Source: a virus
Lineage: Duplodnaviria > Heunggongvirae > Uroviricota > Caudoviricetes
Strand: one strand, 5' to 3'
DNA: 48,174 nt
IMG/VR virus record: IMGVR_UViG_2711768016_000013
The position numbers were made by a program, and so were the translations under genes. This document shows, piece by piece, positions 8,246 to 15,708 of the stretch. Numbering within the stretch: position 1 is the first letter of the stretch; each line of letters opens with the position of its first letter. The notes beneath the pieces were generated by a model. It was given only the letters and a program-made list of their open reading frames with translations, made no database searches and was not told the origin of the DNA.

Positions 8246-8500
8246 ATGAACCAGAAAACACTTGAAGATGTAATCAAAACTGTTCGCGTTTCTGTTGTGG
8301 CCGACGTTTGTGGTGTCAGCCAAAGAGCAATCTACAAATGGATGGATAACGGAAAATTGCCTCGCACAGAATATACCGGCGAAACAAATTACGCTGAAAA
8401 AATCGCTCATGCATCAAACGGATTATTTTCTGCTGATGTAATTTTAACTATTGGCAGAAATAAAACTACTACGAAAAAGCTGATGGGAGTTGATTCATGA
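8246..8500 (+). CDS. ydaS: Cro-like small HTH protein (YdaS-like)
   Basis: ATG at 8246 preceded by GAGGG; VSQRAIYKWMDNG HTH-like segment; overlaps ydaT start. Confidence 0.7.
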   Translation: MNQKTLEDVIKTVRVSVVADVCGVSQRAIYKWMDNGKLPRTEYTGETNYAEKIAHASNGLFSADVILTIGRNKTTTKKLMGVDS

Positions 8501-8919
8501 AAATCAAGCATGAGCACATCGAGTCAGTGTTGTTAGCCCTGGCAGCCGAAAAAGGGCAGGCATGGGTAGCCAATGCCATTACTGAAGAATATCTGCGCCA
8601 GGGGGGCGGCGAATTGCCCCTGGTACCAGGCAAGGACTGGAATAATCAGCAGAATATCTATCACCGTTGGTTGAAAGGTGAAACGAAAACGCAAAGAGAA
8701 AAAATTCAGAAGCTGATCCCAGCAATTCTGGCAATCCTTCCGCGCGAGCTGCGTCACCGACTCTGCATCTTCGATACCCTGGAACGCCGTGCATTACTGG
8801 CGGCGCAGGAAGCGTTAAGTACGGCAATTGATGCGCATGATGATGCAGTCCAAGCCGTTTACCGGAAAGCGCATTTCAGCGGCGGCGGGTCTTCCGACGA
8901 TTCTGTCATTGTTCATTAA
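8497..8919 (+). CDS. ydaT: YdaT-like protein, 140 aa
   Basis: MKIKHEHIESVLLALAAEKGQAWV...; coupled to ydaS (ATGA overlap). Confidence 0.8.
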   Translation: MKIKHEHIESVLLALAAEKGQAWVANAITEEYLRQGGGELPLVPGKDWNNQQNIYHRWLKGETKTQREKIQKLIPAILAILPRELRHRLCIFDTLERRALLAAQEALSTAIDAHDDAVQAVYRKAHFSGGGSSDDSVIVH

Positions 8920-11758: not shown

Positions 11759-11914
11759 ACGTTACTAGATCAAAGAGCATTAGTTCATATGTAAATTGAC
11801 ATTTTTCTGGCACAGGGGAGAGCTAGCGTGGTTGTCCGCTTTGTGCCAATAGCGGACATTGCTGGCTCATGGTATGTTAGTTTAAGGAGGCAGGTTATGC
11901 CCTGTATTTCGCTG

Positions 11915-11923
11915 TGGTATAAT
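11915..11923 (+). promoter_or_regulatory. Extended -10 promoter element (TGgTATAAT) upstream of the accessory operon
   Basis: TG at 11915-11916 and TATAAT at 11918-11923, about 34 nt upstream of the GTG at 11957. Confidence 0.4.
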
Positions 11924-11956
11924 AGTTGCGCAATTGATACAAGGGAGCGTTACATC

Positions 11957-12919
11957 GTGAAAATTGTTTTCGAGGTTAATGGAAAGAAAGTTCCACTAAA
12001 ATCTTTAAAATACATAAGCAAAAAAGATCAACTCGAAGTAATGAAAAACTGGTTCTTTGAAAACTTTGAAGATCCGGCAAATGCTTGTCCGTATGAAAGT
12101 AGAGAAGGTGGCTATGCTTACATATATGGCGGGCCGTATGATGCGAGCGAAGAACTACAATCCATCTTCGGTCAATATGTTAAATCTGAGTATATTGAGG
12201 AATTAGTAGATGAATTACAAACACAATGTTTTGACTGGTCTGGAAACTCAAATAATATAGATGATTGGTACGATGATGATATCTACGACGCTGTAACGTC
12301 TTCCGGTAATCCGTATTTAAAATTCATTGATAATATCGATAAAATAAAAAAACTTGCAAAAGATAAAACTGAACAACAGCAAAAAAACCACTTGCTTAGT
12401 TTGCTCTACACGAATGTTATTACAGCTTTGGAAACGCTTTATGTTGAGCTATTCATTAATTCTATAGAGAAAGATGATGTCTACATAGCCAATTGTATAG
12501 AAAAAGGTAAGACTGAATTTAAAGTAAGCAAAGATATTGCTGCGTTGCCTTTCAAGGGTGAACCCATCGAGAAAATTAGGGGAGAGCTAATCAGGTCAAT
12601 CAAGGAACACTTGATCAGTGCAAGCTGGCATAGCACTAAAAAGGTAATCGACCGCTATGAAGCTACATTCGATATAAAAGTACAAAAAGACTGTCCGATA
12701 GAAGCTATTGAATTGGCAACCCTCAATCGAAATCACTTAGTGCATCGTGGTGGAAAGGATAAAGAAGGGAACCTCGTAGTGATTACAGACCAGGATCTTG
12801 AAACGCTGATTGAAAATGCATCGAACCTGGCAATTATGCTCTACAACAGTTTAAATGTAGCAACGAATAAAACCACCATTTTGCAACCAGATGACAAACC
12901 GTTCATTCATGAATTTTAA
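11957..12919 (+). CDS. Uncharacterized protein with C-terminal Rx4H (HEPN-like) motif; first gene of AT-rich accessory operon
   Basis: Start uncertain (GTG 11957 with AGGGAG 9 nt upstream; longest ORF starts 11828); LNRNHLVHRGG at codons 299-309 follows predicted helices; low GC. Confidence 0.6.
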   Translation: MKIVFEVNGKKVPLKSLKYISKKDQLEVMKNWFFENFEDPANACPYESREGGYAYIYGGPYDASEELQSIFGQYVKSEYIEELVDELQTQCFDWSGNSNNIDDWYDDDIYDAVTSSGNPYLKFIDNIDKIKKLAKDKTEQQQKNHLLSLLYTNVITALETLYVELFINSIEKDDVYIANCIEKGKTEFKVSKDIAALPFKGEPIEKIRGELIRSIKEHLISASWHSTKKVIDRYEATFDIKVQKDCPIEAIELATLNRNHLVHRGGKDKEGNLVVITDQDLETLIENASNLAIMLYNSLNVATNKTTILQPDDKPFIHEF

Positions 12920-12934
12920 TAGCGCAGGTCATAC

Positions 12935-13936
12935 ATGGATATTCGCACACGAAAGACAAAATTTTTAGAGTCGTTAGATTCAACTGAAGTGATACGCAAA
13001 GCAGTAAGTCTCGCTATAGATTGCATTATTGATAATCATAATAGTAATGAAGATACCCCCTTAGTTATTACCAGCTATGATGATCTCTGTAGAATCCAGG
13101 TGCTAAATTATGTACAGGAGTTTTGCGAAGCTGCATTCCCTGATATGGATGAATATTACTTTAGTCCTAACATACTTCGCATCAACGGCAAGACTAGTGA
13201 AGAAGCTTGTATTAACTTAATTAAACTCTTAAGAAGTACAAAAGGCATGCTATTCTGGTCCGATGCCCCATCGTGGTTCGCTAGCCTCCCCGACGGATTA
13301 TTCCATGTTGTTAACATTGATCAAAAAATCGTTACTCGCGGCCTTAATAAGAAAAACTCTAAGCCGACAATAATCAATAAAGATTACAGTGTAGATACAC
13401 TACTATCAGAGCTATTTTTGAATGGCGCACACATGGAGCAACCCAACGTACACAACGTTTCTGAGGGAAACATGAAGTTCTATGATGAATGCCATGCTGG
13501 ATTAATCAGACCAATACCCGCTCCAATAGGCGCGTCATACGATGAAGAGATCACAATTAATTCTCCAGATTGGCAAAAGCTCGCGTGTGTAGCTTTACGC
13601 CGCTATCAGTCGAAGGAATGTCATGACGGAATGCAATGGGATACAACCGATCATGGTTGGACTGATGTAATCGCGTATCCATTCGTCGAAGAAATACAAT
13701 CAATGGATAATAGTGGTTATCGACAATGTTTAGTTGGGCTGGTCACAATAAACAATTCAAATGCAAATTCTCCGTACCTATCTACCGTTTGGATACATCC
13801 ATTTTATCGCAGGAGAGGGTTATTAAGTAAGTTATGGCCAAAATTACAAGAGTTATATGGAAGTAACTTCGAAATTGAGCGACCTAATGAAAATATGAAA
13901 GCATTTCTGAAAAGTGCGAAACACGCAGATTACTAA
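12935..13936 (+). CDS. Uncharacterized 333-aa protein with C-terminal GNAT-like motif; second gene of accessory operon
   Basis: ATG 15 nt after upstream stop; VWIHPFYRRRGLLSKLW resembles GNAT acetyl-CoA-binding motif A. Confidence 0.65.
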   Translation: MDIRTRKTKFLESLDSTEVIRKAVSLAIDCIIDNHNSNEDTPLVITSYDDLCRIQVLNYVQEFCEAAFPDMDEYYFSPNILRINGKTSEEACINLIKLLRSTKGMLFWSDAPSWFASLPDGLFHVVNIDQKIVTRGLNKKNSKPTIINKDYSVDTLLSELFLNGAHMEQPNVHNVSEGNMKFYDECHAGLIRPIPAPIGASYDEEITINSPDWQKLACVALRRYQSKECHDGMQWDTTDHGWTDVIAYPFVEEIQSMDNSGYRQCLVGLVTINNSNANSPYLSTVWIHPFYRRRGLLSKLWPKLQELYGSNFEIERPNENMKAFLKSAKHADY

Positions 13937-14113
13937 TTTATGAATCAGTCTGTGGAGTTAGGGTTGGTGTGAACAAGTAGGGTAAGAGCCTCAACGTGAT
14001 GCTATGCCGACCTGCTCCCTGAGAATTCACACAGAAGGCTGCTAGCAATGTCTGCAGATCGCTCAAAGCGGACTAAAATGTTGGCTTGTTTCTGACTTAG
14101 AGCATTTAAGGAA

Positions 14114-14338
14114 GTGCTGGTGGTGACTGGTTGTTGTGTTCCATTTCTACAGAATAAAATCACAGAAACTATACCCAATAGTTGTATTGAATCACTGACG
14201 AGACAGCCTCATATTTATCAGGACTGGTGTGCGTCTAATACAGGGGGTTGTCGTGCTGGTTCTCAAATGTGCGCTGGCTATTGCGGCTGTAATGGCAATT
14301 TATTGTCTTGCTGTTGTTCTTATGGAGCGGCTTTCTGA
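14114..14338 (+). CDS. Possible small Cys-rich peptide (9 Cys in the last 35 residues); weak call
   Basis: GTG-initiated ORF; C-terminus CRAGSQMCAGYCGCNGNLLSCCCSYGAAF; no convincing RBS. Confidence 0.2.
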   Translation: MLVVTGCCVPFLQNKITETIPNSCIESLTRQPHIYQDWCASNTGGCRAGSQMCAGYCGCNGNLLSCCCSYGAAF

Positions 14339-14496
14339 TTGATTACATACTGGCTAGAAAAAAGGTGTTACCTTGGTTTATCTTTGTCCGGCAAGGTGCG
14401 CTCATTAATCTTAAGTAAATTTATTGCTCAAGTATTCAGATTACTTCTTATGGTTGAAGTCTCCTGTCAATGTAGAACCAATATATTTACAAAAAT

Positions 14497-14535
14497 GAGA
14501 CCCGTCGGGGATAGCCCTGCCGGGTCTGACTGTTA
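14497..14535 (-). terminator. Hairpin plus T-run downstream of the minus-strand gene 14557..14895
   Basis: AGACCCG...CGGGTCT stem followed by CATTTTTG on the minus strand. Confidence 0.4.
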
Positions 14536-14556
14536 AAGCATTTTTAATATGATCAT

Positions 14557-14895
14557 CTATTTTTTGGTGCTATAGACTTTTTCGCCCGAAAAGTCTGGAG
14601 CGACCCAAAAGTTAATATTAAACTGAGCATCATCGCTTAGTTCAACACGGTGCCAGTATTGTGGTGGGCTTGTTGCAAAAGCGCCAGCATTAATGACTAC
14701 TTTTATCTCCGGTTCAGTAGCATTCTCATCAGTAAAACCATAATATGTTACAGTGCCTTCCATTACGCACAACTGCCCAAAAACACCTGCTGCTGTATTA
14801 TGATGTGTTAATAACGCTGAAGGTACGTTCTCTTTTGTGAAGAACGGAGTTGAGCGTTTGATTACCCAATCTTTAGGAATTCTCTTGTGTGTCAT
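14557..14895 (-). CDS. Hypothetical protein, possibly cupin-like (DUF1971-like); accessory gene on opposite strand
   Basis: ATG at 14895 with GGAGGAGG 7 nt upstream; MTHKRIPKDWVIKRSTPFFTKENVPSALL...; fold assignment tentative. Confidence 0.55.
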   Translation of the reverse strand: MTHKRIPKDWVIKRSTPFFTKENVPSALLTHHNTAAGVFGQLCVMEGTVTYYGFTDENATEPEIKVVINAGAFATSPPQYWHRVELSDDAQFNINFWVAPDFSGEKVYSTKK

Positions 14896-15708
14896 AACCA
14901 CCTCCTCCAAAACATGCATTAAAAATGCATCTTTTGGAGGGTTATGTCAAGCTGTTATGAAACACATAATTGATATGTTGATTAGAGGAGAAGATAGAAT
15001 AAATATGGTTGTTTTTCGTATAACTATTTGTTTTACTTTTAGTTTATGCATTCTGTGTGTTAGGAATAAGTTATTAAAGTTTAATCAAAAAATCTCGATG
15101 TAGTCCACATAGATTACTGTTACTGAACCTTATTGTGTGTATTAGTTGTGTTCTGAAATTTCAGCTTAATTATTTATGATGTATTTTTTAACGATAAATA
15201 TTTTCCCAGGATACCTTTACTGTGTATATAAATAAATTATATACGCATAAATAATGTAAAGGCGTCCTTTTAGATATATCTTATCAAATGTTAATGACTT
15301 GAGTGGGAAATATGATTCCAGCAACTTATCATGTGGCTACTTTATAAAAATAATGCCCATATAAAACAACAAGCGAAAAGGATTACGGATAAAAAAGGAG
15401 CGAGATGTGCGAACTTGTTATTTTCCATGTTTAACCACCTTAAATAATTGATGATGACGGGATGATTGCATCTGTAATGCTTTTATTGAAATGTTATGAT
15501 AAAAAAGAACTTTTGCATAACATTAAAATGTAATTTATCTAATCGTTTTTAATAATAAGTGTCGTATTTCTATCCTTGTACCAGCTATTTGATATGTAGT
15601 GTTTGTTCATGCTATGTGGGGCTTTACACCATAGCCAGTTTATTTATACTTTATTCGTCAGCCTGAACAACTGGCATCTGCTGCGCTGCGCCATCGAGAG
15701 ATTGAGAA

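Follow-up and report, generated by a model that had tools for sequence, protein, structure and literature searches.

We propose, at a probability of roughly 65%, that gene A of an Escherichia coli lambdoid prophage encodes a two-domain, stand-alone abortive-infection HEPN ribonuclease (RNase) that the prophage carries as accessory cargo. The gene lies on the + strand of IMG/VR virus record IMGVR_UViG_2711768016_000013, a 48,174-nucleotide stretch of DNA that was analysed as a whole and that we call the window; its coding sequence, 11957..12919, likely specifies 320 residues from a GTG start. The proposal draws on sequence conservation, a structural model of the product and analogy with characterized systems.

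An original prediction made from the sequence alone had read a motif in the C-terminal region of gene A, R-N-H-L-V-H at 12728-12745, as the signature of a HEPN RNase. The motif is there: when the + strand open reading frame (ORF) 11828-12919 is translated, the codons concerned are cga aat cac tta gtg cat. Its designation as codons 301-306 holds if counting starts at GTG 11828; the motif falls on codons 278-283 from ATG 11897 and on 258-263 from GTG 11957. Residue numbers here follow the 340-residue form that begins at ATG 11897 unless the 320-residue form is stated, and in this numbering the putative catalytic motif is R278-N-H-L-V-H283, followed by an invariant R284 (12728..12748, +; R258, H263 and R264 in the 320-residue form).

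Taken alone, an Rx4H motif is weak evidence. It arises in 13% of composition-preserving shuffles of the gene A protein, is present in 14 of the 37 large ORFs of the window, and occurs a second time within gene A as R233-H238, a copy that is not conserved. The stricter pattern R[NDH]x3H appears in 2% of the shuffles. RNHLVH is significant because it is conserved across relatives, and not by its occurrence alone. A search of 5.8 billion proteins returned 121 relatives of gene A, 48 of which were aligned, down to about 26% identity. R278, H283 and R284 are identical in all 48, and the arginine of the second copy is found in just two of them. Among 250 full-length relatives, a set that includes representatives from a library-wide hidden Markov model (HMM) search, R278 is kept in 247, H283 in 247 and R284 in 245. 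The residue directly after R278 is histidine or asparagine in 48/48 aligned sequences; in active HEPN domains, a polar N, D or H typically follows the motif arginine (Anantharaman et al., 2013; PMC3710099).

The motif sits in an all-helical C-terminal domain of the RiboL-PSP-HEPN type (residues ~139-328; 12311..12880, +). An AlphaFold2 monomer model built on the alignment of relatives has a mean predicted local distance difference test score (pLDDT) of 87, and its helical C-terminal domain comprises long helices at 160-190, 224-241, 268-283 and 298-328. The structural check proposed with the original prediction was a four-helix HEPN core around the motif, and such a core, of the up-and-down kind, is found in the model. 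Helix 268-283 ends with RNHLVH as its final turn, after which the chain makes a short hairpin loop. In HEPN proteins, core helix 3 has the Rx4-6H motif at its C-terminal end, and a loop comes next (Anantharaman et al., 2013; PMC3710099), and the agreement between this placement and the model supports the HEPN reading. The helical segment that had been quoted as directly preceding the motif, NHLLSLLYTNVITALETLYVELF, is a real helix but sits about 90 residues upstream of RNHLVH; in the model and alignment it corresponds to the HEPN domain's first long helix (160-190) and bears an invariant glutamate.

Profile searches point to the same family. Relatives at 30-60% identity match Pfam PF18735 (RiboL-PSP-HEPN) above its gathering score (28.4 bits) over nearly the whole profile; in one of them, P0101, the alignment covers profile positions 7-190 of 191, and relatives whose E values to the window protein are 1e-38 to 1e-39 score 36.1 and 39.1 bits. 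The 48 aligned members include 24 with PF18735 (E <= 1e-3) and 33 with PF18870, the family of the N-terminal domain, and no other Pfam family was found among them. Because the window protein itself falls below Pfam thresholds, its HEPN assignment rests on transitive homology together with the fold. These matches and the position of the motif at a helix end support reading the Rx4H as that of a HEPN RNase, with RNase activity as a prediction, and sequence and model together support RNHLVH as the conserved signature of a RiboL-PSP-type domain. RiboL-PSP-HEPN domains are bacterial, conflict-associated and predicted to be active, and their clade within HEPN is a distant relative of AbiD/AbiF (Anantharaman et al., 2013; PMC3710099). 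Gene A resembles them in that the C-terminal domain of its relatives fits the profile almost end to end with Rx4-6H conserved; it differs in carrying an N-terminal PF18870 domain and in that the window protein lies under the PF18735 reporting threshold.

Two further conserved sites lie in the C-terminal domain. Glu179, in the sequence ITALET on the first long HEPN helix (12431..12433, +), is kept in 48/48 aligned and 246/250 full-length relatives. Given its conservation, it is a candidate auxiliary acidic active-site residue; a conserved acidic residue upstream of the motif is a feature of many HEPN families (Anantharaman et al., 2013; PMC3710099). Trp244-His245, just past the second core helix (12626..12631, +), is likewise present in 48/48 aligned sequences, with the tryptophan in 236/250 and the histidine in 244/250 full-length relatives, and His245 may be another histidine involved in catalysis or RNA binding. 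In the mechanism we envisage, R278-x4-H283 would form a metal-independent RNase site in the four-helix bundle, probably aided by R284, E179 and H245. Both protomers of a homodimer would contribute to this composite site, as is the case for other HEPN enzymes, and the cut RNA would have 2',3'-cyclic phosphate ends. Until a cue from an infecting phage switched it on, the nuclease would be kept silent by the PF18870 domain; once active, it would cut tRNA or mRNA, shut down translation and thereby abort the infection, which would protect both the lysogen population and the resident prophage.

The N-terminal domain (residues about 21-135, ~115 residues; 11957..12301, +) matches Pfam PF18870, HEPN/RES N-terminal domain 1. 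In the AlphaFold2 model it is a small alpha/beta domain spanning residues 24-135, and it contains the most conserved motif of the whole protein, WFxxNFEDPxxxxPYESREGGYxYIYGGPY. PF18870 is above its threshold in several relatives (P0112, 29.6 bits; L061, L063 and L072, 29.0-29.5 bits). The Pfam name indicates that HEPN fusions have been seen before; the domain architecture of gene A is already catalogued, and HEPN abortive-infection nucleases are well known. Our literature search found no paper on the gene A protein, its accessions, PHROGs or a HEPN counterpart of aRES, the system in which PF18870 has been studied.

aRES joins PF18870 to a RES domain and is a validated stand-alone abortive defence that acts by NAD+ depletion and arrests growth (Osterman et al., Sorek laboratory, bioRxiv 10.64898/2026.01.28.702374). 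Gene A resembles it as a single gene without an operonic partner, found in defence-island and mobile contexts, and shares PF18870 at the level of the Pfam family. The two differ in the effector position, occupied by a RES NAD+ phosphorylase in aRES and by a HEPN RNase domain in gene A. Membership of aRES was rejected, as neither the window protein nor any of the 48 relatives matches RES and the C-terminal domain is HEPN. If our proposal is right, gene A would add a HEPN-armed branch to the aRES sensor family, and a comparison of two effectors on one N-terminal domain would offer a direct route to what PF18870 senses.

A wider reading is that PF18870 is a portable phage-sensing switch mounted on interchangeable suicide effectors: RES in aRES, HEPN in gene A, PIN in protein P0116 and others in alphaproteobacteria. 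Gene A would then be an RNase-armed sibling of aRES that senses the same class of cue, through a fold without a solved relative, and the E. coli subclade may have added a GNAT-like partner to modulate or extend the response. We hold this extension tentatively, at somewhat less than even odds. Several proteins with other architectures were seen. In P0116, PF18870 is C-terminal and comes after a PIN_8 domain; in a Bradyrhizobium ORF (L070:6025-8106), possibly an ORF run-on, PF18870 seems to be combined with S1 and RNase E/G N-terminal domains; and alphaproteobacterial proteins of ~250-300 residues (L061-L080) combine PF18870 with C-termini that have no family assignment. A profile search with the N-terminal domain for RES fusions returned short fragments alone and no RES fusion.

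Gene A belongs to a widespread family that shows no fixed partner. At E <= 1e-3 the HMM search returned 3617 cluster representatives, and at E <= 1e-30 it returned 853; most have 280-320 residues, and the family covers many phyla. Relatives are also encoded on 83 IMG/VR viral contigs. In an all-against-all comparison of the three neighbours on either side at ~60 loci, no neighbour family recurs as a conserved partner, and we therefore treat gene A as a stand-alone unit. We also looked for an RNA antitoxin or a repeat array of the type III or AbiF-like kind and obtained just sub-threshold Rfam noise and one trivial tandem repeat. The neighbours across loci include integrases, transposases, SIR2, Fic, capP/M78 peptidase, DUF2290, AbiJ_NTD3, a methylase and ArdA, with NTP_transf_2 in only 2 of 139; gene A sits in mobile, defence-rich DNA.

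Several results weigh against the proposal. The window protein has no PF18735 match at E <= 1, and its residues 46-112 match PF18870 at 21.8 bits (E 2.5e-4), under the gathering threshold of 27.4. Foldseek found no match in PDB; no PDB chain matched the gene A sequence at E <= 10, and the family profile found no HEPN chain. The fold of the N-terminal domain has no solved relative, and the sensor role we give that domain is argued by analogy only. No model in PADLOC-DB v2, which includes the PD-T4/PD-T7 HEPN systems, ApeA and the Abi families, matched gene A significantly (best scores E 0.01-0.03, to the unrelated models PglX, DpdH and PDC-M13A), and an NCBIfam search of the protein gave no assignment. 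The defence-island neighbourhood evidence is scattered, at two to five loci per family. Certain HEPN domains are non-catalytic binding modules (PMC3710099), and in E. coli gene A is always followed by gene B.

The last of these observations bears on an alternative in which A and B form an obligate two-gene system, toxin-antitoxin or sensor-effector, with the GNAT-like B neutralising, modifying or cooperating with the HEPN RNase. Such arrangements have analogies in the MNT proteins that AMPylate HEPN toxins and in the GNAT toxins that acetylate charged tRNA. The two genes are on the same strand with a 15-nucleotide gap and no terminator-like site between them, each is found in the same number of E. 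coli genomes, 209 of 5426, and B follows at the same spacing in every fetched locus where A is at least 84% identical. It does so only there, at 26 of 113 loci (E. coli-type viral contigs, Serratia and Aeromonas caviae); B is missing from all 87 of the fetched loci whose near-full-length A homologue is no more than 76% identical, and no other conserved neighbour stands in its place. Homologues of B also occur without A, in Marinomonas beside an Abi_2-like gene, in Shewanella, and in a metagenomic defence island with TerB, BrxC-like, helicase, Mrr and HEPN_Toprim_N genes. The existence of A-only and B-only loci indicates that the A family functions without B, and B without A. We read the two as independent modules that were linked recently, with B a facultative companion, and consider an obligate system unlikely; in the E. 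coli subclade, A and B may nonetheless interact functionally in a two-gene mode of action.

It is also conceivable that the HEPN domain is a non-catalytic module binding RNA, nucleotides or protein, or that the protein serves the prophage's own biology, in RNA processing, lysogeny control or exclusion without suicide. Catalytically inactive HEPN domains do exist, for example fused to nucleotidyltransferases (PMC3710099), no known defence-system model matches gene A, and its position next to phage replication and regulatory genes would fit a phage-internal role. HEPN families that lack activity, however, usually lose Rx4-6H (PMC3710099), whereas here the motif arginine and histidine, the flanking arginine and the upstream glutamate are near-invariant in 250 sequences. 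The family moreover extends over many phyla in chromosomal and mobile contexts outside phages and without a link to any phage module, and low GC content and occurrence on different prophage backbones mark gene A as cargo. We regard this explanation as improbable, more so than the obligate pair. The shuffles, the 14 window ORFs with Rx4H and the second, non-conserved copy in gene A would all allow RNHLVH to be a chance match in an ordinary helical protein; that idea is refuted by the conservation of the motif (48/48; 247/250), the Pfam matches of the relatives and the HEPN character of the C-terminal domain, and we give it almost no weight. The reading of gene A as a stand-alone abortive-infection HEPN RNase is the one we favour over all three.

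The closest precedent for such a protein, in logic and in genomic position, is HepS of the Salmonella prophage Gifsy-1, a solo HEPN abortive-infection anticodon nuclease in an equivalent accessory slot (PMC13043305). The analogy lies in a single HEPN protein with Rx4H and without a conserved partner, encoded in the accessory slot downstream of lambdoid replication genes. HepS differs in having fewer than 250 residues, no PF18870 and its motif at R100-H105, where gene A has 320 residues and two domains; for HepS, the trigger (the J tail tip) and a tetrameric state are known (PMC13043305). Neither phmmer nor the family profile against PDB detected sequence similarity between gene A and HepS, assuming that entries for HepS are part of the 2026 PDB copy. 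Membership of the HepS type was rejected on this lack of detected homology, the two domains and the length of 320 residues. If our proposal holds, gene A would be a second, unrelated solo HEPN nuclease, after HepS, in the lambdoid accessory slot downstream of the replication genes. The type VII HEPN-MNT systems (HepT/MntA) are further removed: their toxins have ~130 residues and an adjacent MNT nucleotidyltransferase antitoxin, whereas gene A has 320 residues and an extra N-terminal domain. Membership was rejected here too, since the neighbours of gene A are the DUF977 gene and the weakly GNAT-like gene B, with no MNT.

Gene A is accessory cargo of an E. coli lambdoid prophage. The window opens with an integrase gene (1-1236, -), followed by genes for YdaT, a DUF1376 replication protein, a DnaC/IstB-like loader, DUF1627, DUF977, gene A and gene B; beyond gene B come a DUF1971 gene on the opposite strand, DUF1367, YbcO and a Q-like antiterminator. 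Going by ORF sizes and order, lysis, head and tail genes appear to lie downstream of the Q-like gene. Guanine-plus-cytosine (GC) content drops from ~0.5 to 0.34-0.40 across 12000-15500, between the replication (DnaC-like/DUF1627/DUF977) and YbcO/Q-like genes. An identical cassette is found in E. coli ATCC 11775 on another lambdoid backbone, between DUF977 and hokD. It is this low GC content, combined with transfer between prophage backbones, that marks gene A as cargo. When deposited phage genomes were searched by megablast, the only match was to the end of the DUF977 gene.

Genes A and B, in the 209 complete E. coli genomes that carry each of them (at least 99% identity in 208; UTI89 and ATCC 11775 included), are always annotated as hypothetical. 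Our reading would offer a function for a pair of hypothetical proteins that occurs in ~4% of complete E. coli genomes, including a model uropathogen, UTI89, and the type strain, ATCC 11775. In a few E. coli genomes (H4, H11 and H31), the cassette is interrupted or flanked by IS elements (IS2, ISSen4, IS1A); one of these records has a truncated gene B labelled GNAT family N-acetyltransferase. In Aeromonas caviae (L082/L083; 3026-4993, 6212-7293), the A+B cassette lies in a relaxase-bearing element and adjoins a SIR2 and cREC_REC pair. Given this element, the cassette travels on conjugative or mobilisable elements besides prophages.

Gene B (12935..13936, +) begins 15 nucleotides past gene A and encodes 333 residues with a C-terminal GNAT-like acetyltransferase motif; its match to PF00583 (E=9e-4) is slightly under the gathering score, and its large N-terminal region has no family assigned. 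NCBI labels certain homologues GNAT family N-acetyltransferase. The family is small and gammaproteobacterial, with 66 matches. As gene B also occurs alone in defence-island-like contexts, it is a defence gene candidate in its own right.

The start of gene A was examined across loci. The mechanical ORF, 11828-12919 (+), offers two starts upstream of GTG 11957: ATG 11897, which would give 340 residues and is preceded by a strong AAGGAGG Shine-Dalgarno sequence, and GTG 11828, which would give 363. In a leader alignment of E. coli, Serratia, Yersinia and two Aeromonas loci, GTG 11957 and its GGAG Shine-Dalgarno sequence are invariant and ATG 11897 is not. PGAP annotates a 963-nucleotide coding sequence in E. 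coli ATCC 11775, equivalent to the GTG 11957 start, and in the AlphaFold2 model residues 1-15 of the 340-residue form have pLDDT <50 and are disordered. Because the conserved start, the PGAP annotation and the disordered N-terminus agree, the product is likely the 320-residue form.

The conserved leader moves together with the cassette. Reading the sequence, we found an extended -10 promoter-like element, TGgTATAAT, 34 nucleotides upstream of GTG 11957 (11915..11923, +), which Serratia and Aeromonas caviae keep in the form TGGTACAAT or TGATACAAT and from which we infer promoter function. A consensus promoter scan that required a -35 element did not report it, and promoter and terminator counts were no higher than in shuffled sequence. 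Further upstream, the leader contains an inverted repeat with perfect 8-bp arms, TGTCCGCT / AGCGGACA, and a 10-nucleotide loop (11833..11858, +); it is conserved in Serratia and partly in Yersinia, and is possibly an operator or an RNA hairpin. Both the repeat and the extended -10 element fall within the non-conserved 5' ORF extension that some annotations translate.

Two other genes of the window are of note. The DUF1971 gene in the low-GC cargo block (14557-14919, -) encodes a protein of 120 residues with a TehB-C-like tellurite-resistance domain (PF09313, E 3e-26); a very AT-rich stretch (GC 0.29 at 15000-15499) comes after it. The gene for the YdaT-family protein (PF06254, a toxin by its Pfam name; 8497-8919, +) immediately precedes the replication genes, an arrangement shared with Rac-like and Qin-like prophages.
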